Below are positions 38,246-60,310 of a DNA stretch of 64,000 nt, piece after piece. This DNA is from an uncultured Patescibacteria group bacterium (GTDB taxonomy: Bacteria > Patescibacteriota > Microgenomatia > UBA1400 > PJMF01). How positions within the stretch are numbered: position 1 is the stretch's first letter; each line of letters begins with the position of its first letter. Where the stretch lies: contig CAJQIG010000002.1 of assembly GCA_905478415.1 (NCBI GenBank), positions 5,573-69,572 of the forward strand. The letters are read 5' to 3'. Below the pieces are notes generated by a model. The model saw only the letters and a program-made list of their open reading frames with translations. It had not been told where the DNA came from and did no database searches. The position numbers were made by a program, and so were the translations under genes.

Positions 38246-39550
38246 GTGAATCTGAGAAGATATAAGAAAGTATGTTTAATGAAACAAAAGATACTTGGCA
38301 TTTTTATTGTCTTTGCTAGTGTTTTTTTGGCGACTAGTCAGGCAAATCAAGCTTATGCTGCTGCCTGTGCTGGAGTTATTAGCGGCATCGGTGACACTCT
38401 CCCCCCCTACTACTCTGGACTAGAGCATGTGATTGTTATGGATATTTCCTCCTACGATCCAAACGACCGGTACTACGTCAAAGTAAAAAATACAAAACTC
38501 ACCGATGATCAAGCTCAAACAGGAAGTTTTCGTTTAAACGATGGAGTATCAGGATCAAATGGTGATTCAAGATGGGAAGTCAGCGGTGGAAAACTCTACA
38601 TCACCATAACTGAAAAAGAAGCACTTGCCCCAAATACAACAGATGGAGAGAACGGTTCTCACTTTGTCGAACTCTACAAACATGAATTTGGATCAAATAG
38701 ATTTTGTGAAATTGGTTACTATTACACACCAAAGAATACCCTCGCAGGAAAATGTACTTTTACTATTACCCAACAACGAACTGGGGCAGATGGAAACACT
38801 CAGGCCTGTTATGCAGCAGGCCAAGCCTCGTGCATGGAAGATGACAAACCGGTTCAAATTGAGGTCTCTGGCCTTGAAGATGCAGATGGACCGTACAATG
38901 GAGCCGTTAGATTTGTCATAGGTGCTGAAGGCTGGGATGCAGGAGGAGATCATATAGAAACATCAACAAATGGCACAGCTACAACCTCAATAACTCCAAA
39001 CTCATCAGCTTCATTTGCAGAAGGAAAAACATATACCGTCAAAATGGAAGCGTCTAGATTAGGAATCAACTTTGACTTTCCAGACCAAAGTTGTACAACA
39101 AAAATTACAATTTCTGACTATTGTGCTCCAGAGCAGTGTGGAGATGAGGCTACAATCGGAGGTGCTCAAGCAATTGGTCCAGACGAATTCAAACTTTGCT
39201 CACAAATAAAAGACCCCGTTGCATTCGAAGCTTGCACTACTTGCGCCGGCGGCGAAGATGGAGAAGATGGCATCTGGACAGCCATTGGCTGTATTAGCAG
39301 AGAACCTGAAGAAATTGTTGGAAAACTCATCAGATTGGGCCTGAGTATGGGTGGTGGAATTGCGCTTCTGATGATCTTATCTGCTGGATTTACACTAACT
39401 GTTTCACAAGGAAACCCACAGAAGGCAGGTCAAGCTAAAGAGATGATTACTGCTGCGGTCACAGGCCTACTCTTCATTATCTTTTCTGTCACTATTCTAC
39501 AATTTATTGGCTTTTCTGTGCTCAAGATACCTGGATTTGGAGGGCCATAA
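38246..39550 (+). CDS. Secreted protein with a ~370-aa extracellular N-domain fused to a C-terminal VirB2/TrbC-like two-TM pilin module
   Basis: Signal peptide. The C-terminus GIALLMILSAGFTLTVSQGNPQKAGQAKEMITAAVTGLLFIIFSV has the same TM-loop-TM module as the 49801-54266 family. Confidence 0.5.
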   Translation: MNLRRYKKVCLMKQKILGIFIVFASVFLATSQANQAYAAACAGVISGIGDTLPPYYSGLEHVIVMDISSYDPNDRYYVKVKNTKLTDDQAQTGSFRLNDGVSGSNGDSRWEVSGGKLYITITEKEALAPNTTDGENGSHFVELYKHEFGSNRFCEIGYYYTPKNTLAGKCTFTITQQRTGADGNTQACYAAGQASCMEDDKPVQIEVSGLEDADGPYNGAVRFVIGAEGWDAGGDHIETSTNGTATTSITPNSSASFAEGKTYTVKMEASRLGINFDFPDQSCTTKITISDYCAPEQCGDEATIGGAQAIGPDEFKLCSQIKDPVAFEACTTCAGGEDGEDGIWTAIGCISREPEEIVGKLIRLGLSMGGGIALLMILSAGFTLTVSQGNPQKAGQAKEMITAAVTGLLFIIFSVTILQFIGFSVLKIPGFGGP

Positions 39551-40083
39551 TGAAAAAAACGTATAGATTATTCTTAACGCTCACACTCTCTCTCCTTTTA
39601 TTGAGAAAGACTCAAATTGTTTTTGCTCAAACTTGCTATGATGACTGCATTTCTGGCGGAAACACCCCAATAGAGTGTAATGCTGCTTGTGGAAACGCTG
39701 TCCCAAATTTTGATGACCCAAATGACGCCATCAACCCAGTCGAAGCCCCAACTGCAGAAACCTTTGACGCCCTCAACCCACTTCAAATTGGTGGGGGTGA
39801 GACTATTGATGATGTAGCTGCTAGTGAGTATGCTGACCAACTTTCTACACCTGGTGGTATAGTAACCCGCCTCCTCGAATTTATTTTTCCTATAGCTGGC
39901 CTGATCCTCTTCTTAATGATCTCCTGGGGTGGCTTTGAAGTTCTTATGGGTAGTGGTGATAGTGGTAAAGTACAAGCCGGAAAACAGAGAGTCACAGCTG
40001 CGATTGTGGGCTTCCTGGTGCTCTTCTCTTCATACTGGCTGATTCAAATTGTTGAAGCAGTTTTTGGTGTCGTTATTTTCTAG
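39550..40083 (+). CDS. VirB2/TrbC-like pilin-family protein (paralog)
   Basis: Signal peptide. C-terminus LILFLMISWGGFEVLMGSGDSGKVQAGKQRVTAAIVGFLVLFSSYWLI: TM helix, short polar loop with GSGDSGK, then a second TM helix. Confidence 0.55.
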   Translation: MKKTYRLFLTLTLSLLLLRKTQIVFAQTCYDDCISGGNTPIECNAACGNAVPNFDDPNDAINPVEAPTAETFDALNPLQIGGGETIDDVAASEYADQLSTPGGIVTRLLEFIFPIAGLILFLMISWGGFEVLMGSGDSGKVQAGKQRVTAAIVGFLVLFSSYWLIQIVEAVFGVVIF

Positions 40084-42376: not shown

Positions 42377-42383
42377 GAAATTC

Positions 42384-43376: not shown

Positions 43377-43412
43377 GTGTTTACTGCTTTCTTTAGAAAG
43401 TCCTCGAAAAGA

Positions 43413-45732: not shown

Positions 45733-45734
45733 GT

Positions 45735-46781: not shown

Positions 46782-47971
46782 TGGGATCGTCCTAATCGTT
46801 TATGTGCTGCTGCTAATGTATTAGTGCAAAGTGCTGCTAAGCCAGAAATTTCACCACCCAGTGCAACCGCTGCAACTGTGGCTGCTAACACGTGTGCTGT
46901 CAGCTTTTCTCCCGTAATTATCTGTTGCCACTGACGTTGTCCGGGTAGTAAAGTTCCTCCACCAACGGTTCCCACCGGCAGTGAAGCAATTTCTAAACGG
47001 ACCTGAACTCCACCTCCAACCGCTTCAAAAAAAACTTCTGCCGAAGATGCTACGTCAACCACATGTGCAATGTCTTGACCGGTAGCAACAAAAATTCCTG
47101 CCACTGCGTTAGCAACGTGCATATTCCCTGCAGGAATTCCAGCCAGTTGTGAACCAACCACATTTTTAGCAACATGTGTGGCAACTAAATCACCAGCAGC
47201 TACTTTCAGAACATTTTCTAAAACAGTTGGTGGAAGAAGTGCTTCTGCTCGTACTCGATATCCTCGACCAAGTTCCCTATTAATTCTCGATGGTTTTTTA
47301 TCTGTGCAAAGATTGCTCGATAAAGCTCTGAGTGAAACATCTTGTTTCATTTTTCTAGGAACTAACGTATTCCACCAATGGGAAAGAGCAATGCTGACCA
47401 TATTCATTCCCATTGCTTCACCAGTATCAAAAACACATCTGACAAACACTAAGTTGCCTTCAACCCATGTTTTTTGAGAAATAAAATGAAGGTGTGAACT
47501 AGTTGCAAGTGATGCCTCTTCAAAGAGTGAGCTATGTTCTGTAACCCAGTTTGCAAATTTTTGGGCTGATTTTGGAGTCGCGCACTCAAAAACAGGGGCT
47601 CTACTCATCCCCACTTTTTCTACCTGAACATTGAATTCTTTGGAAAGCGAAAGTGCTCGCACACCTCTACTTAAACTCGCAATTAGGGCACCTTCGGTTG
47701 TTGCAATTGGAACAATGACTTTAGCTATTTTGGTGATGTCAGGACCATCAGCCAAAGGAAGATTAAATGGGCCAACCACTCCAACCGGCAGAGCTACTGT
47801 GCCAACTAGGTTTTCACAATTTTTTGAACCAACAGACTGAATATCAAAAGGGAATACTTGTGTCTTTTGTAAAATCTCACCTCGAAGTTCTTTGAGCAAA
47901 CTCACTCGGGCTGAAACTTTCGCTTCTTCTGATTGATTTGATCGAATGTAAAAAGACTTTTGTGACATCAC
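46778..47971 (-). CDS. Hydroxymethylglutaryl-CoA reductase
   Basis: DTGEAMGMNMVS, the GTVGGGT motif and a size of ~400 aa. Confidence 0.8.
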   Translation of the reverse strand: MMSQKSFYIRSNQSEEAKVSARVSLLKELRGEILQKTQVFPFDIQSVGSKNCENLVGTVALPVGVVGPFNLPLADGPDITKIAKVIVPIATTEGALIASLSRGVRALSLSKEFNVQVEKVGMSRAPVFECATPKSAQKFANWVTEHSSLFEEASLATSSHLHFISQKTWVEGNLVFVRCVFDTGEAMGMNMVSIALSHWWNTLVPRKMKQDVSLRALSSNLCTDKKPSRINRELGRGYRVRAEALLPPTVLENVLKVAAGDLVATHVAKNVVGSQLAGIPAGNMHVANAVAGIFVATGQDIAHVVDVASSAEVFFEAVGGGVQVRLEIASLPVGTVGGGTLLPGQRQWQQIITGEKLTAHVLAATVAAVALGGEISGLAALCTNTLAAAHKRLGRSQ

Positions 47972-48016
47972 GTAAAGTTAGTCGCAAAAAGAGAGTCAAA
48001 TCATGCAAAGTAAAAG

Positions 48017-48646
48017 TTATTTTGTTTCTGCCAGACCTGCTTGTAACATCATCACTGTCCATGGAGCCAATTTCATATGCTTTCCACCAAGTAATACGGG
48101 TAAAGGCTGCATATTTTCAGCTAACTCATTCCACGAAGCTTCAAGAGATGTTTGCAAAGTGTAGTAGCCCTGTTCTGAAACAGCAGCTTGGATTACTTTT
48201 TTTAATTCTTCAAGTGATATCCAACTATAGTCGCTCACCTCATCAGGGTTGGCAATGACCTCAACATCATCAACATTCATAAAGAAAATTTGATCAACTT
48301 CATGTTCACTGTACTGCTGATTGCAGTAGGCTTTATACTCGAATTTTTCACCTTTTTTTAAAACCATTTGGTCAACGGAAATACCCAACTCACCTTTGAG
48401 CCTTCTGATTGCACAAGCTTCATAGGTTTCTCCATCCCATACATTACCACACACTGTATTCGCCCACCAAAGAGCTCCCACAATTTTTTTACTGCTTCGC
48501 TGCTGGAACAACACTTCTCCCCGAGCATTAGTAAGCCAAACCGAGATAGCACGATGACGTTTGGGTGGATTTTGATGAGCCGTATACTTTTCAAGTGTTC
48601 CCACTTGAGTGTCATCTGTTGATACTAAAATAATTTGTTCACTCAT
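48017..48646 (-). CDS. idi: Isopentenyl-diphosphate delta-isomerase, type 1 (Nudix family)
   Basis: WANTVCGNVWDGETYEACAIRRLKGELGI closely parallels the Idi type 1 active-site region. Confidence 0.75.
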   Translation of the reverse strand: MSEQIILVSTDDTQVGTLEKYTAHQNPPKRHRAISVWLTNARGEVLFQQRSSKKIVGALWWANTVCGNVWDGETYEACAIRRLKGELGISVDQMVLKKGEKFEYKAYCNQQYSEHEVDQIFFMNVDDVEVIANPDEVSDYSWISLEELKKVIQAAVSEQGYYTLQTSLEASWNELAENMQPLPVLLGGKHMKLAPWTVMMLQAGLAETK

Positions 48647-49047
48647 GTATTCCTAACAATTAATTTAAAGCGCAGTAATAAATACAACAGTAGTACTTGC
48701 CAATATAAACAGAAAAAGACTACCGTGTTTGACACAAATGATAACAAATCACACGACACGTAGTACTTCGTAGAACAAGAAAAGAGTATCTGGGCAAGTG
48801 GTACAACCAAAAACTTCCACAGTACCGTGGCTGCTGCTAGAATATATAAAGGAGTGACTGTCATCCAAACAAACACTTTTCCTTTTACCAAGGACTGCAT
48901 TGTCTGGTACGGATGGAGTAACAAACCTAAAGCAACTTGACCCGTGGAATAAAATAGTGAGAGAAAAACTATTTTTTTATTCATACCTTTTCGATAACTT
49001 CTAATAAAAATGCCGAGAGTAGAGATAAAGAAAGTAACACTTGCCAA
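48643..49047 (-). CDS. Hypothetical membrane protein (possible C-terminal part of an anti-sigma factor)
   Basis: Three hydrophobic helices. It overlaps 48981-49175 in another frame. Confidence 0.35.
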   Translation of the reverse strand: MASVTFFISTLGIFIRSYRKGMNKKIVFLSLFYSTGQVALGLLLHPYQTMQSLVKGKVFVWMTVTPLYILAAATVLWKFLVVPLAQILFSCSTKYYVSCDLLSFVSNTVVFFCLYWQVLLLYLLLRFKLIVRNT

Positions 49048-49175
49048 ACATGTGTGCCCACAAAAGCGGAAACCGCATCAACTTGTCTAGGAAGTAGTCG
49101 TGTCTTTGAAAGCTTTTTTTGAAACTCAGCTTCTGTTTGTAGTTTTGCTAGGAATTCTGTTTGAGAAAGACTCAT
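48981..49175 (-). CDS. Small protein immediately downstream of the ECF sigma factor; possible anti-sigma N-terminal segment
   Basis: Starts 3 bp after the sigma stop. Cytoplasmic N-terminus followed by a TM onset VWQVLLSLSLLSAFLL. The frame differs from 48643-49047. Confidence 0.3.
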   Translation of the reverse strand: MSLSQTEFLAKLQTEAEFQKKLSKTRLLPRQVDAVSAFVGTHVWQVLLSLSLLSAFLLEVIEKV

Positions 49176-49178
49176 CTG

Positions 49179-49703
49179 CTACTCTTCCCGTATCCATAAA
49201 TACTGAAACTCTTTTCGAGCTCTAAATAAGTCTGATTCAATGGCTTTACAACTTCGGCCGCATCTCGATGCAATCTCAGCAACCTTAAGTTTATCAATGT
49301 ACTTTTGTTGTAAGAGCTCACCCGATTCCCGCTTCATTTTAGAAAGAACAGAAGCTACTTTTTCAGACACATCATCTGCATCGTGCACATGGGAGATCAT
49401 GAATGAATCAACCAATGGGAAGGTCTTTAAAGCCTTCTTTGCATATTTTTTTCGATAATAATCAGCAATTTCATGACGCAAGACTGCGTTCATCCACGTC
49501 CACAGCGAAGATTTTCCACGAAATAATCCAATTTGCTTCATGCAGTTTATAAACGTTTCTTGCACCAGTTCTTCGGCCTCGGCTTTATCAGAGACACGCA
49601 GCTGGGCTACAACAAGTAAACGATCAAAGTATGTAGTAAACCAAGTCGCAACAGCTCGTTGTTCACCGTTTTGAAGACCAGTAATAAGTTTTGCCTCTTG
49701 CAT
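49179..49703 (-). CDS. RNA polymerase ECF-type sigma-70 factor
   Basis: Region 2 EELVQETFINCMKQIGLFRGKSSLWTWMNAVLRHEIADYYRKK and region 4 LKVAEIASRCGRSCKAIESDLFRARKEF. Confidence 0.8.
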   Translation of the reverse strand: MQEAKLITGLQNGEQRAVATWFTTYFDRLLVVAQLRVSDKAEAEELVQETFINCMKQIGLFRGKSSLWTWMNAVLRHEIADYYRKKYAKKALKTFPLVDSFMISHVHDADDVSEKVASVLSKMKRESGELLQQKYIDKLKVAEIASRCGRSCKAIESDLFRARKEFQYLWIREE

Positions 49704-49800
49704 GTATTTCAGATACTTTCATATAGTAGAGATACTCTAGGTGAAATGTTCAATCGCCTGGGGTAGTAAAGAAAGTTAAGTTACTATATAATACCATTAC

Positions 49801-50151
49801 ATGAAGCTTCAGTTGATACCACAAGCCTACGCTCAATGTTCCCCCGGAAGTGGAGGCGTTAATCTTGGTGACTGCCTCAAGCTTTCTGATAGTACTCCTG
49901 TCAGCGAAGTGTATAGCAACCCCGCTTTTCTCGTTAATTTAGTTGTCAGAAATTTGTTTATTGTTGGTGGCATTGTCCTAGTCATCATGTTCTTTCTAGC
50001 TGGATACAAATTTATTCTTAAAGGCAAGGAAGGTGTCCAAGAAGCACAATCACTTGCAACTAATGCCTTAATTGGCTTCATTATTATGTTTGCAGCCTAC
50101 TGGATTGTACAAATTATTGCTCTCATTACTGGAGCTGACATAGCACTGTAA
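49801..50151 (+). CDS. VirB2/TrbC-like pilin-family protein, paralog 1 of a 9-gene tandem array
   Basis: Signal/anchor. C-terminus LFIVGGIVLVIMFFLAGYKFILKGKEGVQEAQSLATNALIGFIIMFAAYWIVQ: TM-loop-TM. Confidence 0.5.
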   Translation: MKLQLIPQAYAQCSPGSGGVNLGDCLKLSDSTPVSEVYSNPAFLVNLVVRNLFIVGGIVLVIMFFLAGYKFILKGKEGVQEAQSLATNALIGFIIMFAAYWIVQIIALITGADIAL

Positions 50152-50156
50152 ACCGC

Positions 50157-50615
50157 ATGAAAATTCGTTCTCATTTCACCACTGTCATCTCTACCGCTTC
50201 TTTTTTTCTACTCGCCCTTATCCCCCAACTTAGAATTGTTTCTGCCGTCTTTGCTCAAGATGATCCAATTGGAACAATCGATAAACCAGAAGCTGTTGCA
50301 AACTTTGACAACGCTGGCGGAATTGGTGAAGGTGATATTGGAGTACTGTTTTTCTTCTCAAGAATGATTAGCTATATCACCATTGTTGCAGGTATTTGGT
50401 CATTCTTTAACTTGATCTTGGCTGGATATACCTATGTAACTTCTTCAGGAAACGCACAAAGTCACACCACCGTTCGAGATAAAATCACCATGAGCATCTT
50501 GGGAATGGTTTTGATTGTCACTGTCTATGCCATCGCCGGTATCATTGGCACTATTTTCTTTGGCAACTCCCTTTACTTCCTCAATCCAACCATCGAAGGA
50601 CCGGCTGCGATATAA
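50157..50615 (+). CDS. Pilin-family paralog 2
   Basis: Signal peptide. ITIVAGIWSFFNLILAGYTYVTSSGNAQSHTTVRDKITMSILGMVLIVTVYAIAG. Confidence 0.5.
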   Translation: MKIRSHFTTVISTASFFLLALIPQLRIVSAVFAQDDPIGTIDKPEAVANFDNAGGIGEGDIGVLFFFSRMISYITIVAGIWSFFNLILAGYTYVTSSGNAQSHTTVRDKITMSILGMVLIVTVYAIAGIIGTIFFGNSLYFLNPTIEGPAAI

Positions 50616-50630
50616 CCAAGGTACTGATTT

Positions 50631-51149
50631 ATGAAAAAACTTCTCTCTCAAACACTCATTTTTGCCATCATCTTTAGTAGTTTTTTACTGTTTACTCCTC
50701 AAAAAATTCAAGCCCAAGAGTGTTCTTATACCAGTCAGTGTGTTAATAACCAAAGCTGCTTATGTATCAGTGGTAGCATTTGCTTTCTAACTCCCTCGCC
50801 TTGTGGCTCCGCAATTATTGGAGAAGTGGCACCACCTCAAGGTGTAGCTGCTTATAATGAAGAAGCCGGTGGTGAAATTGGTCTCTTTAAGTTCGCCTCG
50901 AGGATTATTTCTCTCGCCTCTATTATCGGTGGTATTATTGTCATGGTGAACTTTGTTTCTGCTGGCTTTACCTATGTCACTTCGGCTGGAAATGCGAGCG
51001 CTCACGAAAAAGTTAAAGATAAAATCACCTGGGGATTAGTAGGACTAGCAATAATTGCTGCCTTCTACACCATTGCTGGTCTAGTCGGCCTCTTATTCTT
51101 TGGAAATGCAGGGGCTATCTTAAATCCAACTCTTGGTGGATCAGTGTAA
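50631..51149 (+). CDS. Pilin-family paralog 3 with a Cys-rich N-terminal insert
   Basis: Signal peptide, then QECSYTSQCVNNQSCLCISGSICFLTPSPCGS, then the module FVSAGFTYVTSAGNASAHEKVKDKITWGLVGLAIIAAFY. Confidence 0.5.
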   Translation: MKKLLSQTLIFAIIFSSFLLFTPQKIQAQECSYTSQCVNNQSCLCISGSICFLTPSPCGSAIIGEVAPPQGVAAYNEEAGGEIGLFKFASRIISLASIIGGIIVMVNFVSAGFTYVTSAGNASAHEKVKDKITWGLVGLAIIAAFYTIAGLVGLLFFGNAGAILNPTLGGSV

Positions 51150-51208
51150 AAGTACAGAACTTGAAGAAACGAGTACAAAAGAAGTAATAATTAGGATATA
51201 CTATACTT

Positions 51209-51577
51209 ATGTTAACGCTCATAGCACAATTTGGTGGAGGATTTGACACTGGCGATGCCCCTTTTTCTGAAGGTGTTGAAACCAATGAAGGAGCTCTTAC
51301 TAATCTAGAATCCTTTATTTCAAATATTATCGGAGTGTTAACTGTTTTTGGCGCAATTTTCTTTATTGTCTACTTTTTAATCGCTGCTCTTGCTTGGGTT
51401 ACCAGTGGAGGAGATAGTGGAAAACTGCAAAACGCCAGAGAACGCATGCTGCATGGGGTGCTTGGACTCATTATCTTAGTTGCCGCATATGGAATAGTTG
51501 GACTCATTGGATCTATCATTGGCTTTGATATCTTAAGTCCAGCTGAAAAATTACTTGAGTTAGCGCCAACACCATAA
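51209..51577 (+). CDS. Pilin-family paralog 4
   Basis: LIAALAWVTSGGDSGKLQNARERMLHGVLGLIILVAAYG. No obvious signal peptide in the ORF as tracked. Confidence 0.45.
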   Translation: MLTLIAQFGGGFDTGDAPFSEGVETNEGALTNLESFISNIIGVLTVFGAIFFIVYFLIAALAWVTSGGDSGKLQNARERMLHGVLGLIILVAAYGIVGLIGSIIGFDILSPAEKLLELAPTP

Positions 51578-51579
51578 TT

Positions 51580-52068
51580 ATGAAAAAACACATCACCACA
51601 ATTATCACCGCTACAACCACTTTTGGAGTAACACTACTTGCTCCTCTTAAAGCCTTTGCTGCTATTAATAATCCTGTCCTTCCCGAAAACTTAGGAGGAA
51701 CTGCAGATTCTTCTGAAGCAGCAACAAGTGGAACTGTATTTGTACAATATCTCGTCTCTCTTTGGGAATCTATGATAAACATTGGAGGGCTTTTAGTGCT
51801 CTTCTATTTTGCCTGGGGCAGCATTGAATGGATTACTGCTGGTGGCGATAGTGGAAAACTCGAGAAGGCACGTCTCCGAATGATGCATGCCATAATTGGC
51901 CTACTGATTCTAGTTTCAAGCTTTGTTATCCTCGGCTACATTAGCACAGCAATGTTTGGTGAAGAATTCCAAATCCTTAATCTTTCATTCCCGACTCCAG
52001 GAGACGCTGCTGGAGCAGCTGGCGGAGGTGGTAGTGGAGGCGGAGGCGGTGGTAATAACGTAATGTAG
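51580..52068 (+). CDS. Pilin-family paralog 5 with a Gly-rich C-terminal tail
   Basis: Signal peptide. WGSIEWITAGGDSGKLEKARLRMMHAIIGLLILVSSF. C-terminus AGAAGGGGSGGGGGGNNVM. Confidence 0.5.
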   Translation: MKKHITTIITATTTFGVTLLAPLKAFAAINNPVLPENLGGTADSSEAATSGTVFVQYLVSLWESMINIGGLLVLFYFAWGSIEWITAGGDSGKLEKARLRMMHAIIGLLILVSSFVILGYISTAMFGEEFQILNLSFPTPGDAAGAAGGGGSGGGGGGNNVM

Positions 52069-52081
52069 TGGTAAAAATTTT

Positions 52082-52660
52082 ATGAAACTCGCACAAGTCA
52101 CACTCGATTTTGCACAAGAAGCAATAGATAAAGAAGTTCCTGGGACAGCTAACCTTGATGCTGCAAACCACGCATCTGGATTTGGTCCTCTCCTTGGTAG
52201 TATTTTTTCATTCGTAATGCTCATTGCAGCTATTCTGGTCATATTTTACCTGATTTGGGGAGCTTTCGAATGGATCACTTCTGCAGGTGACAAAGGAAAA
52301 CTTGAAAAAGCCAGGCAACGTATTACGGGCGCAATTTTAGGTATCGTGGTACTTGGTTCTGTTATAGCTATCTTTATGGTTGTCCAACAATTCTTAGGAA
52401 TTGAGGCCTTCACCTTTGTTGGTGCCAGTGGTGGCACTAGCAGCGGTGGCGGAGGTGGGGCGGCAGTGGCTGATGGTGCCTGTGTTGTTAATGGCTCTAT
52501 GCTCAATGACGGTGGTGCAGGAAATTACTGTACTCAAGGAGCAGCTATCGTTCGTTGTTTTCCTCCTGAGGGAAGCTATGCCAGCAATCACTATAACCCC
52601 TGCTCTTGTGTAGATGGATCACAGTACGAACGACCAGGCTACAACTTTGGTTCGTGCTAA
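52082..52660 (+). CDS. Pilin-family paralog 6 with a Cys-rich C-terminal extension
   Basis: WGAFEWITSAGDKGKLEKARQRITGAILGIVVLGSV followed by a ~90-aa extension containing seven Cys. Confidence 0.5.
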   Translation: MKLAQVTLDFAQEAIDKEVPGTANLDAANHASGFGPLLGSIFSFVMLIAAILVIFYLIWGAFEWITSAGDKGKLEKARQRITGAILGIVVLGSVIAIFMVVQQFLGIEAFTFVGASGGTSSGGGGGAAVADGACVVNGSMLNDGGAGNYCTQGAAIVRCFPPEGSYASNHYNPCSCVDGSQYERPGYNFGSC

Positions 52661-52752
52661 TAAACCAGCCAAAGAAATTGGCTTGACTATTTCTCTGGAA
52701 CACAGGTATAATTGAAAGTATTAAGTTTGTAACTAAAGTAATAAGGAGAAGC

Positions 52753-53157
52753 ATGACAAACTCACTTAAAAAAATGGCAGCTTCAGCTGTCGCTACCGGA
52801 ACCGCTTATTTAACAGCCGTTTCACCAGTATTTGCTCAAATTGACGTAACTACCATCGAACCAGGAAAAGGTTTCGCAACTAACATCGGTGATGTTATTA
52901 ATGCTGTTCTCTCTTTTGTCATGGTAATCGCTGCCCTCTTGGTATTTATGTACCTTATCTGGGGTGGTATCGAATGGATCACATCGGGTGGAGACAAAGG
53001 TAAGACTGAATCTGCACGTAACAAAATTACTGCAGCTATCTTGGGACTTATCGTTCTTGCTGCTTCATATGCAATCCTCTTAATTGCTCTTAACTTCATC
53101 GGGTTTGAAAACCTTGGAGATGCTTTCAGCAATGTTAAAAGAATTAATGGTAACTAA
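52753..53157 (+). CDS. Pilin-family paralog 7
   Basis: Good SD aAGGAGaagcATG. Signal peptide. WGGIEWITSGGDKGKTESARNKITAAILGLIVLAASY. Confidence 0.55.
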   Translation: MTNSLKKMAASAVATGTAYLTAVSPVFAQIDVTTIEPGKGFATNIGDVINAVLSFVMVIAALLVFMYLIWGGIEWITSGGDKGKTESARNKITAAILGLIVLAASYAILLIALNFIGFENLGDAFSNVKRINGN

Positions 53158-53184
53158 TAGATAGTTATCTTAGACTTGAAACCG

Positions 53185-53215
53185 AAGGCCTCGCACTCTG
53201 TGCGAGGCTTTTTGG
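53185..53215 (+). terminator. Rho-independent terminator inside the pilin array
   Basis: aaggcctcgcac-tctg-tgcgaggctt followed by tttgg. Confidence 0.8.
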
Positions 53216-53242
53216 ATTCAAAAACAAACTTAGTAATATCGA

Positions 53243-53797
53243 GTGTTTACCAAATCTGATATACTAAGCCTCACTCAAATGGAAGACATGCTAAAAAAAT
53301 TACTCATACTTTTTATCACACTAGGTGCTATCGTGCTCTTGTCAAATCCAGCCTTAGGAAAAGCTAAGACTACAAATGATGTTCTTGTTCAACAAGACGG
53401 TGATATTTTGTTCTTAACAACTACCGAAGCTACCAATTCAGCAAACACTACTAAAACAACCACTCAACAATCATTTATTTCTCTTGAAAAAAGCTGGATT
53501 ACGATTCCAAAAGGATTTGCAACTGATGTTGGCACGCTTCTAAATGCCATTCTCAGTTTTGTTATGCTCCTTGGTTCTTTGTTAGTTTTTACACAACTTA
53601 TTTTAGCTGGATTATACTGGATCACTTCTGGTGGAGATAAGGGGAAGGTCGATGCTGCTCGTCAAAGACTCATGGCTGCAATTATTGGTTTGATTATTCT
53701 AGCCTCAAGTTTTGCTATTCTAACAATTGGACTTAATTTTCTTGGCTTTGAATCACTTGATGAAGTATTTAAAAACACTAAAACAATCGCTCCATAA
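53243..53797 (+). CDS. Pilin-family paralog 8
   Basis: Probable real start at MLKKLLILFITLGAIVLLSNPALG (~53288). LAGLYWITSGGDKGKVDAARQRLMAAIIGLIILASSF. Confidence 0.5.
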   Translation: MFTKSDILSLTQMEDMLKKLLILFITLGAIVLLSNPALGKAKTTNDVLVQQDGDILFLTTTEATNSANTTKTTTQQSFISLEKSWITIPKGFATDVGTLLNAILSFVMLLGSLLVFTQLILAGLYWITSGGDKGKVDAARQRLMAAIIGLIILASSFAILTIGLNFLGFESLDEVFKNTKTIAP

Positions 53798-53831
53798 TTT
53801 GGTATACTAAAAAAGTAGAAAAATTATATTT

Positions 53832-54266
53832 ATGTCAACAAAAGCAGCTAAATTCCTTAACAAGTTCTCAAGCTTTGTGGCTGCTCTTGCTTTTTACCTA
53901 ACAGTGGCCACTCCAGCTCGAGCTCAAACACTTACCTGGAGCGGTGTCTGTGTCGGTACTACCGAAAACTCTACTGATGTAGCAACACTACAAGGCCTTG
54001 AATGCTTGATTGCGAATGTCTTTACCGTCATCATTACAATCATTGGACTAGCTGGATTTGTCATGTTTGTAGTTGGAGGAATTACTTGGATGCTTTCAGG
54101 TGGTGATTCTGGTAAGGTTCAATCTGCTCGTGGTTCGATGACCTATGCGGTGGTTGGTATGGTTGTGGCACTGAGTGCCTTCATCATCCTCAACTTGATA
54201 GCTTCATTTACTGGAATTAGTTTGATTACTCAATTTAGAATTCCCGTTGCTGGCGACGGTACCTAA
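53832..54266 (+). CDS. Pilin-family paralog 9
   Basis: Signal peptide. VGGITWMLSGGDSGKVQSARGSMTYAVVGMVVALSAF. Confidence 0.5.
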   Translation: MSTKAAKFLNKFSSFVAALAFYLTVATPARAQTLTWSGVCVGTTENSTDVATLQGLECLIANVFTVIITIIGLAGFVMFVVGGITWMLSGGDSGKVQSARGSMTYAVVGMVVALSAFIILNLIASFTGISLITQFRIPVAGDGT

Positions 54267-54291: not shown

Positions 54292-57200
54292 TTGTTGAAT
54301 CACGTAATTCACGGTATACTACTGGTTGTGAACATCTTCAAGAAAATAGCTTCTATCATTTTCCTTTCTGCAGTTCTTTTTACCAGACCTCAAAAAATAT
54401 TTGCTGCCGTTGGTACCCATCTTGGGGCAGGTGATGTTGGCACACAAGTAAGTGTTATGAATGGTGTGATTGGAAATCGCCCTGGATTTCCCGTAACAAT
54501 TATGGCAGATATGGGTCTTTCTGACGACTCTTTAGGACAACTTGCAGCTGCCGCTAACAATAATGGACTCTTTCCAATTGTCCGTATTAACTATGCCTGT
54601 ACTGTAGCTTCTGACGAAGCTATCGCAATGGTAAATCGAGTTAAGGCTGCCTTTGGCAATGATGTCATCATCACTTTTGGAAACGAGGTAAACAACCAAA
54701 GCTCGGATAATGCTGGGTGTACCGATTGGAATAGATATGCAGCTAACTACAACTCCGTAAAGGGATTAGGAAATATTTCACCTTCTGCCCTTGATTGGTA
54801 CATGGGAGATCCAGCCTACAACGCCCAACTCTTTTTAGATTCTTCTGGCATGAATGGAGCCTACTCGGCTGCAGGCATACGAACCGCCAATGCCTACGGT
54901 TGTATTGGTGGCACCAGCAGTGACTGCGATCCAGCTGGTACTGACACCCAATCAATCGGTGTCCAGGGAACTAGTGGCAAAGAACTCTATATTACTGAAT
55001 TTTCCCTTTCTCCTGGTGGCGGTGATCCTCCCGATTCAAATTTAGCTAACGTTCTTGACTTCATTCAAAACCGTTCTGGCGAAATGAATGCAGCCCAGAT
55101 TACTCCACTAGTCAGAAATGTCTGTTCTGATCTGCAGAGTGAGGGAGAATGGCTTGTCTACGTTGAAGGTGAACTTTTTACTTGGGGTGGCACAAAAGTA
55201 GACCCCGACTGTAGCGCGATTGCTGGTACCAACGGGAGTAATGGCTATGACCTAAGTGATTTTCCAGAATACGATACCAGCCCCGATCTTTTTTACTTAC
55301 AACCAATATCAGGAATGCTCCCCCCAACCAGAAACGTAGACCTTATTCGCAAAGATTTAACTAGTTCAGGCTACGAAGCCTACTGTGCTGCCGAAAATAT
55401 TGAAATAAAACCTCGATACAATACCTCTAGTCTCATTGATAGATATTTAGAACTGTACCCAGATGGAATTAACTTGGCTGTTGACTCTGTCGCTTCAGCA
55501 GATTTTACCAATGCAAAAATTCCTATTTGGAGAGATGTCGAAGGCACAAAGTTTTTAATGAGCTCTCTTGAAGAATTCTTTAGTTTCAAAGACTTATACA
55601 CACAAGATCCAAATTATGCTGAGCTGAACTCTGCCCCAATCAACTCACTCTTAAGCCAAGAACAACGGTGTGTCCAATCCGCTCGAACTCTGTTGGCGAC
55701 CGAGCTTATGTGCGAAAAATTACTCAATCCTGGAGAGTGTGCACTACTTGCCCAGGCAGTACCCACTGGTGGAACTGTTGAAGAAGTCAGAACCATGATG
55801 CATGAGCTTATGCCAACCTACCGGGATGGTGGTATTTCAAGAGAATGTCGCAGCCTCTACTCTGCTGACCTTGAGGAAACACCAGCTATCAAAAAATTTA
55901 AAACAGCCTTACAAAGTTTTCCTCTGGAAATCAACAGATCGTACCGACTTGCCTTTTTAGTTGTTTCGATCGAAATGAAAGAACCCCTTCTCAGTGGAGA
56001 CGTGGCCAGTAAAATTTTTAACTTCTTTACAAAAAAAACTGAAGATTTAATTCCTAAACATGAGGTCCTGGTTATTGCGTTCAAAATTCCAGATATTGCA
56101 ACAAATAAAGGTGGTGGTGATGACTCAGGAAGTGTCTATTGGAATGACCCTTCGTACCTCACTCGCAACATTCTCCTTACCCAAGATCAAATTAGAAACC
56201 TAGAAGATGTCCGTCGTCCTCAAAAACGTAGTGAAATTGCTCAACTAGCAGAAGCTGCAAAGAATCAAAATGATGGTAGTCGTATTTTTTGCTATGAAGG
56301 CAACTTTCCAGATGGAGACGGCACTCCAGCTTGTAAAAATGAGCTTGGTAAAGCGGTCGTTGATATCGTCAATGGAGCCGCCTATGGCTGTGATGACAAA
56401 GAGACTGAGCCCGTAGCACAAATTAATGACTATGCTGGTCTGAGAGATCCTAAAGATCCTTATGGAAAAATCTATATCGACCAATGGGGAAATTCCCTCC
56501 TCCTTAACCTCTTTGGAGCAGGAAGTAATGCTGATGTAACGCATGTAGCTGATAATAACTACATGGACCCTCAAAAAGCTAAAACTTCAGACCCCTGGTA
56601 TGAAAAAATAAAAACACAATGGACTATTAACCCAACTACCTGGCCACCATCCGAAAATAAAACTATTGCTAACTACTACCTTGTTTACCCAATGGGCTTC
56701 GAATTAAAAGAAATAGAAGCTGTCATTAAAAACACCTTCTTTACTGCAGAACAGATTGCCCAAATCGAAGAAACAGAGGATATCTTAGATGGTTTTCCTA
56801 TTCAAGGTACTCAAATTGGTGTAGCTGGTGGAACTGCAACTTGGGACTTTCCTGACCCAGACAAAAACTGTGGTACAGATGCTTCGCCCAGCCCATGTAC
56901 AGAGTACGTCTCAATCCCTATCGAAACAGAAAATAAGGGAGTTGGTTTCTTAGGAGCAAATCTTGGATTTTGGCTGCGTCAGGTTCAAAGATCACTCAAC
57001 TCATCAGCATCAGCAACTCACAACTATATTACTTCGTGTAAAACTCTTGAACAATTTTTGTTAGGTCAATGTGCAGGAGGTATTGCAAGTGGAGATCCTT
57101 CTTCTTCAAACTTTGATTATGACACTTGTGGGTACAAGCTCGGTACCGGCTACTGTGCTCCCGATAATCTTGCCCCCTACTTTGCTGAAGCCGGCTTTGC

Positions 57201-57660
57201 TAACCCTCAACTCGAGGCAGACAAAGCCTCACGGATCTGTCAAAAAGAAAGTGGAAGTAGTCCCTATGCCTTTAATGATCGCTGCATAGAAGGCACTTCT
57301 GTTGACTATAGCGTGGGTCTCTTCCAGATTAATATGTTACCTCGCTGTCCTGGCTCTTTCTTAGATGGTAGCGGCAATCCAGATACTTCTGCAGCTTACG
57401 ATGCCTATGACCTTCCTTGTACTATTACTGACCAAGTTAATCTGAACGAATGCGCCCTTTCAAAGCTTGCCATTGGCTCATATGCACAACCTCGAATCAA
57501 CGCTAATTTACCAGCTGGAGCCTCTCCAATTCAACAAGACACCTTGGCAGAGGAAGCTATTAAAGCTGATAACAATATCAAAGCTATGGTACAACTGAGA
57601 AAAGCCTGGGGTAACTGGCAACCTTGGACAAATGGGGCAGGCAACTGCAGTATCGAGTAA
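54292..57660 (+). CDS. Secreted 1122-aa bifunctional cell-wall hydrolase: N-terminal GH clan-A-like glycosidase domain plus C-terminal VirB1/SLT-like lytic transglycosylase domain
   Basis: Signal/anchor. ITFGNEVNN (acid/base NE-motif) and YITEFS (nucleophile TE) are spaced ~110 residues apart, as in clan GH-A. C-terminal ICQKESGSSPYAFN...YSVGLFQINMLP matches the SLT catalytic ES...GLxQ[IV] signature. Confidence 0.55.
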   Translation: MLNHVIHGILLVVNIFKKIASIIFLSAVLFTRPQKIFAAVGTHLGAGDVGTQVSVMNGVIGNRPGFPVTIMADMGLSDDSLGQLAAAANNNGLFPIVRINYACTVASDEAIAMVNRVKAAFGNDVIITFGNEVNNQSSDNAGCTDWNRYAANYNSVKGLGNISPSALDWYMGDPAYNAQLFLDSSGMNGAYSAAGIRTANAYGCIGGTSSDCDPAGTDTQSIGVQGTSGKELYITEFSLSPGGGDPPDSNLANVLDFIQNRSGEMNAAQITPLVRNVCSDLQSEGEWLVYVEGELFTWGGTKVDPDCSAIAGTNGSNGYDLSDFPEYDTSPDLFYLQPISGMLPPTRNVDLIRKDLTSSGYEAYCAAENIEIKPRYNTSSLIDRYLELYPDGINLAVDSVASADFTNAKIPIWRDVEGTKFLMSSLEEFFSFKDLYTQDPNYAELNSAPINSLLSQEQRCVQSARTLLATELMCEKLLNPGECALLAQAVPTGGTVEEVRTMMHELMPTYRDGGISRECRSLYSADLEETPAIKKFKTALQSFPLEINRSYRLAFLVVSIEMKEPLLSGDVASKIFNFFTKKTEDLIPKHEVLVIAFKIPDIATNKGGGDDSGSVYWNDPSYLTRNILLTQDQIRNLEDVRRPQKRSEIAQLAEAAKNQNDGSRIFCYEGNFPDGDGTPACKNELGKAVVDIVNGAAYGCDDKETEPVAQINDYAGLRDPKDPYGKIYIDQWGNSLLLNLFGAGSNADVTHVADNNYMDPQKAKTSDPWYEKIKTQWTINPTTWPPSENKTIANYYLVYPMGFELKEIEAVIKNTFFTAEQIAQIEETEDILDGFPIQGTQIGVAGGTATWDFPDPDKNCGTDASPSPCTEYVSIPIETENKGVGFLGANLGFWLRQVQRSLNSSASATHNYITSCKTLEQFLLGQCAGGIASGDPSSSNFDYDTCGYKLGTGYCAPDNLAPYFAEAGFANPQLEADKASRICQKESGSSPYAFNDRCIEGTSVDYSVGLFQINMLPRCPGSFLDGSGNPDTSAAYDAYDLPCTITDQVNLNECALSKLAIGSYAQPRINANLPAGASPIQQDTLAEEAIKADNNIKAMVQLRKAWGNWQPWTNGAGNCSIE

Positions 57661-58696: not shown

Positions 58697-60310
58697 ATGG
58701 CTAAGCGAGCTCTCTTGATGCTAGCAGTACTGTTTGTGTTCCTTTTCGGGGGCCGAGCTTCTGTCGCACATGCTCAAGGAGCACCAGCAGAAAGTCCTTT
58801 TAGTCCGCAATACGACGCCAACCTCATTGATTCTTACCGAGAAGCTATCACTAACTGTGGAACTCCTTCTTTAGAATGTCTTGTTCACCACGTCTTTAAG
58901 TATGTACAAATTGAAACAGCTGGCACCGTCTACCAAGGAACTCCTCCAAGCAGTGCCGGGGCCCAATCTGCTGAAGCTCCAGCAACTAATAGTGTTGCTG
59001 GCGGCCTGATGTACTTAATCGGCCAAATGTATGCTTCACCTCCAGCCAGTACTGCCACCTATGTAGCTGATGTTATGAACAGCGCTCACATTGCTACCCC
59101 AGCCTATGCACAAGGACTTGGGTTTGCCGCCCTAGATCCCATTTTAGCTCTCTGGAAAACATTTAGAAATATCGCGTACCTCTTCTTTGTGATTATCTTT
59201 ATTGTCATTGGTTTCATGATTATGTTCCGGAATAAGGTTAACGGGGCTGATATTACGGCGCAACAAGCAATCCCAAGTATCATTGTTTCGCTTATCTTTG
59301 TTACGTTTTCATACGCTATTGCCGGATTTATGATCGACCTGATGTATTTAACAATGTTCCTTATGGTGGGACTGTTCGACACAACCATGACCAATGGTGG
59401 TCAAATTATTGATTACAACATTCTCCAGATTGGAGCCATGCTCTTTAGCGGAGTGGGAACATCCTTTAGTAATAACATTGATATCGTCACTAACATGTTA
59501 GCAGGGTTAGTCAGCGCCGAAAACTTTGGAACTGATCTGTTGGGTGTAATCGGTGGCGTTACTCTTTCGTTAGTGTTAGCTGTAGCTGTTATTATTGGAA
59601 CCTTTAAACTTTTCTTCGAACTCCTGAAAAGTTATGCCAATGTAATTGTCAGTACCGTTATCGCCCCAATTACCCTAATGATGGGTGCTATCCCTGGTAA
59701 AAACGTCTTCACTCCTTGGGTCCGAAACTTAGCAGGGAACCTGGCAGCCTTCCCCGCCGTTCTCTTCGTCGTCATTTTATATAACCAGTTTACAGAACTT
59801 GGCAGTGGAACAAATGGTGGCTTTATGCCTCCTTTTTTACTTGGCCGAGGCCAAGATGGCGCTATTGCTTCCTTAATGGGATTAGCCCTAATTTTAGCTT
59901 TGCCAGAAATTGTGAAAGAGATTAAAACTGCCGTTGGCGCTACTGAGGGTATTGGAACGAAGATTTGGGGATGGGCTTCAGCTCGAGCTAAAGAATCTCC
60001 AAGATATGGATTCCCTGTCTATGGTGCTGCAGCTGGGGGAGCCTATGGAGCTGCAAAAGGATTTATGCAAGGAGATGGCCTTACAGATCGATTATCAAAA
60101 GCGGGAGCTGGAATGAAAAGCCATGGTAGAAGAGGTTTCACCAAGGGACAAGATGCTGCTAAACAAACAGAACAAATCATGGAAGGAAAATTCTTTGACC
60201 CTAATAGCTGGGAGAATGCTCTTTTGAAACGAGAGCGAGCAGCTCAAGAAAAGGAAAGAGCAGAAGAACTACTCAAGAAAAAGCAAAATAAAGATAAAGA
60301 CCCAGGCTAG
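58697..60310 (+). CDS. VirB6/TrbL-like polytopic membrane protein (T4SS inner-membrane channel candidate)
   Basis: Signal peptide, a ~150-aa extracytoplasmic domain, about six TM helices and a long charged cytoplasmic tail. This is VirB6/TcpH-type architecture. Confidence 0.4.
   Translation: MAKRALLMLAVLFVFLFGGRASVAHAQGAPAESPFSPQYDANLIDSYREAITNCGTPSLECLVHHVFKYVQIETAGTVYQGTPPSSAGAQSAEAPATNSVAGGLMYLIGQMYASPPASTATYVADVMNSAHIATPAYAQGLGFAALDPILALWKTFRNIAYLFFVIIFIVIGFMIMFRNKVNGADITAQQAIPSIIVSLIFVTFSYAIAGFMIDLMYLTMFLMVGLFDTTMTNGGQIIDYNILQIGAMLFSGVGTSFSNNIDIVTNMLAGLVSAENFGTDLLGVIGGVTLSLVLAVAVIIGTFKLFFELLKSYANVIVSTVIAPITLMMGAIPGKNVFTPWVRNLAGNLAAFPAVLFVVILYNQFTELGSGTNGGFMPPFLLGRGQDGAIASLMGLALILALPEIVKEIKTAVGATEGIGTKIWGWASARAKESPRYGFPVYGAAAGGAYGAAKGFMQGDGLTDRLSKAGAGMKSHGRRGFTKGQDAAKQTEQIMEGKFFDPNSWENALLKRERAAQEKERAEELLKKKQNKDKDPG

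Follow-up and report, generated by a model that had tools for sequence, protein, structure and literature searches.

Divergent tandem arrays of VirB2-like pilin genes have been described for the Patescibacteria (PMC12102498, PMC10633639, PMC12857230). Arrays of 2–11 such genes were reported from 383 patescibacterial assemblies (Quinonero-Coronel et al. 2025, PMC12102498), and a series of pilin subunits is essential in Southlakia epibionticum ML1 (Wang et al. 2023, PMC10633639). The window analyzed here, a 64,000-nucleotide stretch of DNA from an uncultured Patescibacteria group bacterium, contains a further example. As far as the available passages of these reports extend, the locus resembles the published arrays in its tandem PF18895 genes, in paralog identity (mean about 25%, maximum about 53–54%; PMC12102498), and in the association with VirB6-like and VirB4-like genes, with no relaxase seen; Microgenomatia are reported to be rich in such arrays (PMC12102498). 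It differs in lying 30 kb from virB4 and adjoining an ECF sigma module, rather than forming a compact T4SS cluster. With its 9 + 2 genes, the window stands close to the upper end of the published range. The original prediction regarded this number as an unusual, roughly tenfold expansion, a view that the published array sizes and the usual seven genes of related loci do not sustain.

The array comprises nine + strand ORFs in a head-to-tail series with intergenic gaps of 2–92 nt, and two further ORFs with the pilin module lie outside it (38246–39550 and 39550–40083). In a Pfam profile search, all 11 ORFs matched PF18895 (T4SS_pilin); nine of them, at 27.8–38.8 bits, pass the gathering score (26.6 bits), and two, 49801 (24.1 bits) and 50157 (16.8 bits), fall below it. 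An HMM of the window module recovers these two at E values of 1e-24 to 1e-29, which is not independent evidence because both were used in its training; independent support for their membership comes from positional orthologs in other genomes. The predicted set of 11 small proteins sharing one two-helix module is confirmed, with exact coordinates. When the whole window was scanned in six frames by HMM, it yielded these 11 ORFs and a weak hairpin within a 537-aa protein, and no confident further carrier of the module among the other window ORFs. The loop motifs TSGGDSGKLQNARERM, TSGGDKGKTESARNKI, and TSAGNASAHEKVKDKI sit between two hydrophobic helices, and the paralogs share a mean column identity of 25% (pairwise 21–53%). 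As anticipated for a helical hairpin, the AlphaFold model of the 52753 protein consists of a signal peptide followed by such a hairpin, with a core pLDDT > 90. The proposed VirB2-like affiliation is supported by the PF18895 membership and by a test of 61 sequences (52 orthologs of 52753 and nine window paralogs), in which 32 matched PF04956 (TrbC/VirB2; best E 2.8e-8) and four matched CagC. No window protein reaches the PF04956 gathering score of 27.9 (best 17.6 bits), which counts against the pilus reading.

The comparison set consisted of 80 related loci, for which the class-6 protein served as bait, and represents one clade. Seven ortholog classes are collinear: 65 of 66 loci keep the same order, most often with the pattern 1234567 (27 loci). 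Arrays in the 66 related loci range from 6 to 10 genes and usually hold 7; the window array reaches nine through one duplication in class 2 and another in class 6. The class-1 gene (49801..50151, 116 aa) encodes a short leader with an AYAQ end and a conserved 2-Cys motif, C..GG.NLGDCL.LSD, and its reciprocal-best orthologs (median identity 50%) likewise open the array in 63 loci. The two class-2 copies, 50157..50615 (152 aa) and 50631..51149 (172 aa; PF18895 27.9 bits), share 45% identity, and each corresponds to the second gene of 7-gene arrays. The second copy is a lineage-specific duplicate, and the predicted Cys-rich insert, with 6 Cys, follows its signal peptide. Class 3 (51209..51577, 122 aa, 32.6 bits, 68 reciprocal-best orthologs) has a short MLTLIAQ leader in place of a full signal peptide, and its 'LIAQ' is conserved class-wide. 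Class 4 (51580..52068, 162 aa, 32.1 bits, 66 reciprocal-best orthologs) ends in a Gly-rich tail. In class 5 (52082..52660, 192 aa, 29.9 bits), a short MKLAQ leader is found, and a Gly-rich linker precedes a C-terminal extension with 6 Cys, not 7 as first counted; 25% of class-5 members have two or more Cys in the C-tail. Class 6 is represented by 52753..53157 (134 aa; 35.7 bits, with a weak TrbC match at 17.6 bits) and by a duplicate whose longest ORF spans 53243..53797 (184 aa, 27.8 bits), although its start is more probably 53288 (169 aa), per the gene call on the identical public contig. This duplicate has a longer Thr-rich N-extension, is 53% identical to 52753, and maps to position 6 of 7-gene arrays. 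Class 7 (53832..54266, 144 aa, 38.8 bits) has a full signal peptide and a conserved motif, W.GVCVG...DVATIQGL, and its 61 reciprocal-best orthologs occupy the last array position.

Consensus scans for promoters, Shine-Dalgarno sites, and terminators distinguish class 6 from the other classes. The 92-nt gap before 52753 contains a sigma-70-type promoter-like site, TTGACT-18-TATAAT (52683..52712, + strand, 11/12 matches), with an AAGGAG Shine-Dalgarno site downstream of it. An intrinsic terminator, GCCTCGCAC-tct-GTGCGAGGC, then TTTTT, lies 3' of the gene (53188..53213, + strand), with a fold energy of -25.5 kcal/mol and a z of -6.4. Within the window, this is the only one of the pilin genes to have a strong promoter of the sigma-70 type, along with a Shine-Dalgarno site and a terminator of its own. 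Across the related loci, a promoter site with at least 10/12 matches precedes 60 of 97 class-6 genes and 3–17% of the genes in each other class, p537 control included. The Shine-Dalgarno site is likewise present at 60/97 class-6 genes versus 0–31% in other classes (class 3 highest), and a terminator follows 68/97 versus 0–3 genes per other class (0–8%), its stem sequences varying between genomes. The 52753 protein has 1083 homologs, with identity of at least 60% in nearly all of the best 120; its identity in the nearest relatives is 83–86%, versus 46–83% for the other paralogs, an apparent conservation that is inflated by the use of class 6 as bait. These signals make 52753–53157 a likely candidate for the major subunit. 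Upstream of the whole array, a TATAAT box of the sigma-70 -10 type (49787..49792, + strand) ends 8 nt before the first array ATG, and a cTATATAATa box is equally spaced from the first array gene in many related loci. The putative promoter would yield a leaderless or near-leaderless transcript. The sequence does not resemble an ECF-type promoter.

The two ORFs outside the array carry large extracellular additions. The 434-aa protein (38246..39550, + strand) is composed of a signal peptide, a variable Cys-rich domain of ~320 aa predicted to be extracellular, a conserved Cys-rich stalk, and a C-terminal pilin module (PF18895 28.4 bits, residues 366–421). Its orthologs (359–508 aa) are present in 12 or more loci and invariably open a gene pair; 12 of 13 family members match PF18895, and several cysteines are invariant. 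The N-domain varies (27–43% identity), matches no Pfam family, and shows a weak PDB sequence match to an intimin fragment (E 0.0066). The conserved partner gene encodes a 177-aa protein (39550..40083, + strand, 34.8 bits) with an N-extension of ~100 aa containing 4 Cys. Cysteine numbers in the extracellular decorations are all even (2, 6, 6, 4, and 12).

Immediately after the array lies a gene for a lysozyme/lytic-transglycosylase-like protein of 1122 aa (54292..57660, + strand), called as 1110 aa on the identical contig. Its C-terminal match to PF18896 SLT_3 (residues 966–1016) is borderline at 25.7 bits against a cut-off of 27; the motifs KESGSS and GLFQIN can be read in its sequence. A gene of this type follows the array in 21/62 loci, and the protein, large and secreted or membrane-anchored, is a candidate VirB1 analogue. 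The 537-aa polytopic membrane protein (58697..60310, + strand) has a signal peptide, ~7 TM segments, and a VirB6-like fold, in which one internal hairpin weakly resembles the pilin module by HMM. A 783-aa VirB4/VirD4-superfamily ATPase (17360..19711, - strand), with an N-terminal TM segment and Pfam matches to DUF87 and TrwB_AAD_bind, weakly matches the NCBIfam models TraD, CD1115 VirD4-like, CedD, and VirB4_plasma and is likely the T4SS motor. Divergent from the array and directly upstream of it, the - strand carries an ECF-type sigma factor (49179–49703; Sigma70_r2, r4_2, and ECF matches), a 64-aa protein predicted to be single-pass (48981–49175), and a predicted 3-TM protein (48643–49047). 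This trio (48643..49703) is found in the same arrangement in 42/58 loci and is possibly a sigma/anti-sigma module, any regulatory link to the array being suggested by gene order only.

Considering these observations, we propose, with a probability of roughly 0.6, that this locus of a Patescibacterium (Pacebacteria/Microgenomatia-like) supplies the set of subunits for a VirB2-like 'T4SS pilin' system, with class 6 as the major subunit. The label 'pilin' rests on homology, from which we infer the pilus; to our knowledge, no organism has yet shown a pilus built of PF18895 proteins. Each subunit is a membrane hairpin, its leader or signal peptide probably cleaved at A|Q, and comprises a class-specific extracellular N-segment, helix 1, a short cytoplasmic K/R-rich loop (TSGGD.GK...AR.K), helix 2, and an extracellular tail that is either short or decorated. 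The class-6 protein would be abundant, and the remaining classes may serve as low-copy minor subunits with initiation, adaptor, or tip roles. The 434-aa and 177-aa proteins could present disulfide-rich extracellular heads on the pilin module, as candidates for distal, host-contacting positions at the tip. The VirB4-like ATPase and the VirB6-like protein may extract the subunits from the membrane and assemble them into a wall-crossing tube or stalk, through which cargo might pass, and passage through the wall would be eased by the lysozyme-like domain at the C-terminus of the 1122-aa protein. The lack of a normal signal peptide in classes 3 and 5, the 30 kb between array and VirB4-like gene, and the failure to recognize VirB3, VirB8, or VirD4 homologues within the window count against this proposal.

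A heteromeric T4SS channel or short stalk spanning the envelope, built without a polymerizing pilus from VirB3/PrgI-like or VirB2-like hairpins that remain embedded in the membrane or just above it, would suit seven fixed classes as well as a filament, and the module-like hairpin in the VirB6-like protein agrees with it. The 52753 and 53832 proteins weakly match NCBIfam NF045849 (Mbov_0395 family, Mycoplasma ICEs), small hairpin proteins of Mycoplasma ICEs are described as VirB3-like (PMC12857230), and pili are normally absent from monoderm T4SSs (PMC12102498, PMC12857230, in the passages available). We nevertheless consider this alternative unlikely: the Pfam matches of the 61 sequences that gave the TrbC/VirB2 and CagC hits include no VirB3 family, the proteins of most classes bear a cleavable signal peptide and extracellular decorations, and one class shows the promoter/terminator pattern expected for a very abundant structural subunit.

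A different explanation, in essence the main reading of the original prediction and an idea also raised in PMC12102498, takes the genes to be exchangeable versions of a single pilin, whose expansion and shuffling would vary the surface, be it for antigenic or phage escape or to suit different hosts. The low paralog identity, the diverse decorations (Cys-rich insert, Gly tail, Cys-rich tail), the repeated duplication of classes 2 and 6, and the variable N-domain of the 434-aa protein are compatible with it. However, every paralog has a same-order positional ortholog across ~65 species-level genomes, reciprocal-best orthologs are more alike (median identity 41–58%) than window paralogs, the N-terminal motifs and leader types are specific to each class and conserved, and copy number stays confined. 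Nor do the pilin genes evolve faster than flanking genes: their ortholog identity equals or exceeds that of neighbors including the sigma factor and Nudix genes, a point against antigenic or host-range variation. This explanation is accordingly improbable, and domain shuffling fares no better. The array looks like an old, conserved set of seven specialized subunits kept in fixed order, and not like a recent expansion; the second option of the original prediction, a heteropolymeric appendage, is favored by the evidence. That the ORFs are generic two-TM membrane proteins without a secretion link, for instance holin-like or bacteriocin-immunity-like, is very improbable: the two-helix hairpin is common enough to make structural matches unspecific, and weak cross-matches to unrelated families such as WLS-like_TM and DUF6112 occur, but PF18895 membership is consistent and joined by the TrbC and CagC cross-matches, gene order with the VirB6-like and lysozyme-like proteins is conserved, no lysis, phage, or bacteriocin genes lie nearby, and homologous arrays lie inside the essential T4SS cluster of S. 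epibionticum (PMC10633639).

The VirB2/TrbC/TraA pilins (diderm T-pilus, RP4, F-pilus) and those of the archaeal Ced/Ted systems (PDB 8dfu) resemble the proposed subunits in being small, with a cleaved leader, two hydrophobic helices, and a short basic loop, and in the weak PF04956 similarity. They differ in that those systems have one pilin gene, occasionally a few, whereas the window proteins fall below the PF04956 threshold and the host is monoderm. In type IV pili and type II secretion pseudopili, a highly expressed major subunit gene has its own promoter and terminator, and conserved minor subunits of low expression share a common membrane-anchoring module. The likeness to the major/minor arrangement proposed here is an analogy only, since their fold, a single N-terminal helix with a globular domain, is unrelated, as are the assembly ATPase and prepilin peptidase. 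The retrieved passages of PMC12102498, PMC12857230, and PMC10633639 make no mention of seven-class collinearity, a class-6 expression unit, or head-bearing fusions. Anaplasma phagocytophilum and Bartonella also carry several divergent tandem virB2 copies on one strand, which, in these animal pathogens, are read as antigenic variants (as cited in PMC12102498); in contrast, the copies here fall into fixed ortholog classes that are shared throughout a bacterial clade, which points to a division of labor.

Nine open reading frames (ORFs) lie head to tail on the + strand at 49801–54266, separated by gaps of 2–92 nt, and a pair encoding proteins of 434 and 177 aa occupies 38246–39550 and 39550–40083 upstream. 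Alignment and hydropathy analysis revealed that all 11, named here by their start coordinates, share a module comprising a hydrophobic helix, a short loop with the pattern TSGGD.GK...AR.K, and a second hydrophobic helix. The identity among the paralogs averages 25% by alignment column and reaches 53% at most. An HMM of this module, run over all six-frame ORFs of the window, recovered the same 11, together with a weak hairpin within a 537-aa protein, and the nine tandem and two upstream genes of the original prediction are thereby confirmed. Each of the 11 ORFs matches the Pfam family PF18895 (T4SS_pilin), nine of them at 27.8–38.8 bits, where the gathering score is 26.6 bits. The other two, 49801 (24.1 bits) and 50157 (16.8 bits), fall below it, and both have positional orthologs; their scores with the HMM of the window's own module (E of 1e-24 to 1e-29) are not independent evidence, since that HMM was trained on these two proteins as well. 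PF04956 (TrbC/VirB2) has a sole match in the window, 52753, which at 17.6 bits (E 0.0046) does not reach the gathering score of 27.9. In a wider scan of 61 proteins, consisting of 52 orthologs of 52753 and nine window paralogs, PF18895 was matched by all 61, PF04956 by 32 (E ≤ 0.01, best 2.8e-8), and the Helicobacter CagC pilin family by four. Neither the 11 ORFs nor the 61 orthologs and paralogs matched VirB3 (Pfam PF05101). The predicted VirB2/TrbC identity thus holds through PF18895 but not through PF04956: at the sequence level, the ORFs are PF18895 members and relatives of VirB2/TrbC, outside PF04956 at the curated threshold. Weak matches were also obtained to NCBIfam NF045849 (Mbov_0395; 29.8 and 20.8 bits against a cut-off of 40), annotated in NCBIfam as a 'pilin-like conjugal transfer protein' of Mycoplasma ICEs. 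These matches fit the connection of the Patescibacteria T4SS to the monoderm MPF-FATA class drawn in the passages of PMC12102498 that deal with it.

The AlphaFold model of 52753 contains a helix at residues 45–77, a loop at 78–81 and a second helix at 82–116, with pLDDT above 90, in agreement with the helical hairpin originally anticipated. The proteins display the architecture of VirB2-type pilins, namely a leader, two hydrophobic helices and a short basic loop, with very short leaders in two of the ortholog classes described below (classes 3 and 5). A PDB sequence search with the paralog profile yielded chance-level matches only, to a sensory rhodopsin transducer (E about 0.4). In nearly all the proteins, alanine and glutamine flank the predicted cleavage site, and cleavage would leave an N-terminal glutamine. 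The leaders of 49801, 51209 and 52082 are only 7–12 residues long, with AQ at the end, which is less than a normal Sec signal peptide needs, and very short leaders of this kind are kept across genomes in classes 3 and 5. An alternative genetic code or truncated ORFs were rejected as their source because no earlier start codon is available between the preceding stop and the start of these ORFs, and because the orthologs keep the leaders.

Eighty related loci were collected from species-representative genomes with 52753 as bait, and hence from one clade, and their pilin-module ORFs were assigned to classes by the best-matching window paralog. The cross-genome comparison of copy number envisaged in the original prediction gave core arrays of 6–10 genes in 66 loci, with a mode of seven (6 genes in nine loci, 7 in 32, 8 in 14, 9 in eight and 10 in three). 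The class order is identical in 65 of the 66, and the modal pattern, 1234567, occurs in 27. Larger arrays arise from duplication of class 2 and/or class 6, and the window array reads 1-2-2-3-4-5-6-6-7, its duplicates being 45% (50157 and 50631) and 53% (52753 and 53243) identical. Reciprocal-best orthologs have median identities of 41–58%, as against 21–53% among the window paralogs. Every class carries its own conserved N-terminal signature, such as the 2-Cys motif C..GG.NLGDCL.LSD in class 1, the M..LIAQ or M.IAQ leaders that replace the signal peptide in classes 3 and 5, and W.GVCVG...DVATIQGL in class 7. As judged from these alignments and gene orders, the array is an ancient ordered set, and a recent expansion is rejected. 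The class pattern supports a division of labor among subunits of one structure.

Among these classes, class 6, represented by 52753–53157 and its duplicate 53243, is the candidate major subunit. A predicted TTGACT-18-TATAAT promoter (11 of 12 consensus matches) is located at 52683–52712 upstream of 52753, accompanied by an AAGGAG Shine-Dalgarno site, and a 9-bp GC-rich hairpin followed by TTTTT lies 3' of the gene at 53188–53213 (−25.5 kcal/mol, z −6.4). Across the loci, 68 of 97 class-6 genes have such a terminator, and a strong promoter and a Shine-Dalgarno site are each present in 60 of 97. Every other class has 0–3 terminators (0–8%) and promoters in 3–17% of genes, and Shine-Dalgarno sites range from 0 to 31%, with the highest value in class 3 (22 of 70). 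The class-6 terminator stems vary in sequence between genomes, which indicates active maintenance by selection as opposed to mere inheritance. Furthermore, 52753 has 1083 homologs, and identity is 60% or more in nearly all of the best 120 of these 1083, a conservation somewhat inflated by the use of 52753 as bait. Together with this conservation, the promoter and terminator pattern is what would be expected if class 6 supplied an abundant major structural subunit and the other classes minor ones of low copy number.

The 434-aa and 177-aa proteins encoded upstream form a conserved pair, which in some genomes lies directly ahead of the array, after SpoIID, giving 10–12 genes in a row. The 434-aa protein combines a variable N-domain (27–43% identity, 12 cysteines), an invariant Cys-rich stalk and a conserved pilin module. 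Its N-domain belongs to no Pfam family and shows one weak intimin match (E 0.0066). The decorations attributed to the array proteins are likewise present, except that the C-terminal extension of 52082, described as having seven cysteines, has six; the Cys-rich segments of 50631 and 52082 contain six each. In the window, the two pilin clusters are separated by a complete-looking mevalonate operon at 40089–48646 (−), located between uppS and a Nudix/IDI-like gene and encoding HMG-CoA reductase, HMG-CoA synthase, thiolase, and three GHMP kinases or a decarboxylase. In several relatives, uppS lies almost next to the Nudix gene.

Upstream of the array and divergently transcribed from it, a trio at 48643–49703 (−) encodes an ECF-type sigma factor, a 64-aa single-pass protein and a 3-TM protein; the same trio occupies this position in 42 of 58 loci and may represent a sigma/anti-sigma module. 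A conserved cTATATAATa box ends about 8 nt before the ATG of the first array gene, and its sequence identifies it as a housekeeping-type −10 element, predicted to give a leaderless transcript, not as an ECF-type promoter. Control of the array by the ECF sigma factor is not supported, as this element is TATAAT-like and not ECF-like, so the trio is retained here as conserved gene order only. Downstream of the array, uppS is found in 24 loci and a trio of genes for the 1122-aa, 308-aa and 537-aa proteins in 21. In the window, the lysozyme-like and VirB6-like genes of this trio follow immediately, and a VirB4/VirD4-superfamily ATPase, the VirB4-like gene, is located 30 kb from the array at 17360–19711. 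VirB3, VirB8 and VirD4 were not recognized within the 64-kb window. The 1122-aa protein (54292–57660), a candidate VirB1 analogue, has a borderline match to the lysozyme-like family PF18896 (SLT_3; 25.7 bits against a cut-off of 27) and carries KESGSS and GLFQIN, which we take to resemble the E-S and GLMQ motifs of family-1 lytic transglycosylases. For the 537-aa protein (58697–60310), searches of Pfam, NCBIfam and PDB sequences were all empty, and its 810 homologs have no informative names or domains, one being labelled 'phage tail tape measure protein'. The fold search was the only informative one and pointed to a VirB6-like fold. The first TM hairpin of this protein (residues about 150–220) resembles the pilin module, with a SYAIAG motif common to helix 2. 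Its score with the window-only HMM is 11 bits and rises only once orthologs join the model, which is circular; the resemblance is thus left as a lead. The 308-aa (57682–58608, −) and 1164-aa (60398–63892, −) proteins are soluble and match no Pfam or NCBIfam family. In more than 20 loci, the gene for the former retains its place alongside the 1122-aa and 537-aa genes. The gene for the latter, in a low-GC stretch (35–37%), occurs in one other distinct locus only (L071) within the flanks examined.

The gene content of the window is that of a reduced genome, with the mevalonate operon, SpoIID, an ATP-dependent ligase and LPXTG surface proteins. The window's nearest counterparts among public sequences are MAGs that carry the label Pacebacteria, Microgenomates, Woesebacteria or 'Patescibacteria group', and an identical array is present on a 394-kb metagenome scaffold. 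Many MAG records with this locus bear the title 'uncultured Pseudomonadales', 'Vitreimonas sp.', 'Methylococcaceae', 'Verrucomicrobiae' or 'candidate division TM6' (CP011212.1), at odds with the gene content; the records are probably mislabelled or chimeric. Each of the large proteins at 2986–4503 and 4530–7040 (+) has a TM segment at its N-terminus, and one of them matches DUF11 weakly. Their LPKTG or LPQTG C-termini and hydrophobic tails make them look like sortase-substrate surface proteins, and a third large membrane-anchored protein is encoded at 1056–2963. The only tRNA gene in the 64 kb is a tRNA-Ile with anticodon UAU (9766–9839, −), an uncommon way of reading AUA in bacteria. A 300-nt direct repeat of 96% identity (12950–13249 and 13767–14066) flanks an ORF at 13330–13731 (−), and through it the 5' portion of a small membrane-protein gene is present twice. 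Either a recent duplication or insertion or an error of assembly could account for the repeat. The GC content drops to 34% across 14001–18000, compared with about 41% elsewhere, in a region covering a 1066-aa soluble ORF (14150–17350, no family match) and the 3' part of the VirB4-like gene.

The family membership, hairpin fold, seven-class organization and expression signature of class 6 are established here, and a VirB6-like fold is indicated for the neighbor. We consider it probable, at roughly 60%, that the locus encodes a VirB2-type structure that works as follows. By analogy with VirB2-type pilins, the hairpins would insert so that the two termini face outward and the basic loop inward, and the VirB4/VirB6 machinery would extract and polymerize them into a tube with a loop-lined lumen. 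Most of the structure would consist of class 6, and the other, minor classes would have initiation, adaptor or tip roles. The head-bearing 434-aa and 177-aa fusions are candidates for the distal, host-contacting end, and the lysozyme-like domain of the 1122-aa protein may aid wall passage. The main rival, which we regard as rather unlikely, is that the subunits form a membrane-proximal heteromeric channel or stalk of the T4SS instead of an extended pilus; a pilus of PF18895 proteins is termed a 'possibility' in the relevant passage of a 2025 review (PMC12857230). The antigenic or host-range variation initially proposed, in which interchangeable pilin copies would diversify the surface, is improbable. 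The fixed classes, their order and their signatures stand against it, and so does the rate of divergence. Identity to the window's genes in the three nearest genomes is 46–86% for the pilin genes, compared with 56–70% for the sigma factor, 52–57% for the Nudix gene and 59–72% for the 1122-aa protein. These identities relative to neighboring genes, used in place of dN/dS owing to excessive divergence of the orthologs (amino-acid identity under 86%), give no sign of accelerated divergence of the pilin genes. Our results therefore oppose the published antigenic or host-range speculation, at least in the Pacebacteria/Microgenomatia-like clade sampled. With all 11 ORFs matching PF18895, the remaining explanation, that they are unrelated two-TM proteins, is very improbable.

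The locus itself is not a discovery, as the phenomenon is already in the literature. Using the same Pfam model, Quinonero-Coronel et al. (2025) report 441 arrays in 383 assemblies, especially in Microgenomatia and Saccharimonadia, and the passages concerned (PMC12102498) describe them as 2–11 pilin genes, tandem or one gene apart, with a mean identity of about 25% and a maximum of 54%, in VirB4-bearing Patescibacteria. The present locus has this form, with nine tandem genes and an upstream pair, identities of 25% and 53%, a VirB4-like ATPase and Patescibacteria relatives. The premise of a tenfold expansion from the usual one or two pilin genes consequently fails for this phylum. According to the corresponding section of the 2025 review, Patescibacteria systems are the only monoderm T4SSs with VirB2-like genes (PMC12857230). 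An essential series of pilin subunits is described in Southlakia epibionticum ML1 by Wang et al. (2023; PMC10633639), and the Patescibacteria T4SS and pilin array are essential in the one species tested (PMC11665869). The seven-class collinearity, the candidate major subunit and the conserved head-bearing fusions do not appear in the relevant passages of three key papers and are what the present analysis adds. This comparison replaces the vague notion of 'many divergent pilins' with specific predictions that can be tested, namely that there are seven fixed subunit classes, that one of them bears a major subunit's expression signature, and that two fusions may lie at the tip. A large fraction of uncultivated bacteria are Patescibacteria, which apparently live at the expense of host cells. 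In the Saccharibacterium Mycosynbacter amalyticus, cryo-ET has visualized a 'lance' of roughly 9 nm whose tip is barbed, as well as a conduit between cells, both given no molecular identity (PMC11880426). Speculatively, and as a doubtful proposal for now, the seven classes might build one heteromeric monoderm tube corresponding to this lance and conduit and serving Patescibacteria as a route for host material, in which the shaft would consist of class 6, the base and adaptors of the minor classes, and the distal tip of the disulfide-rich fusions of 434 and 177 aa.
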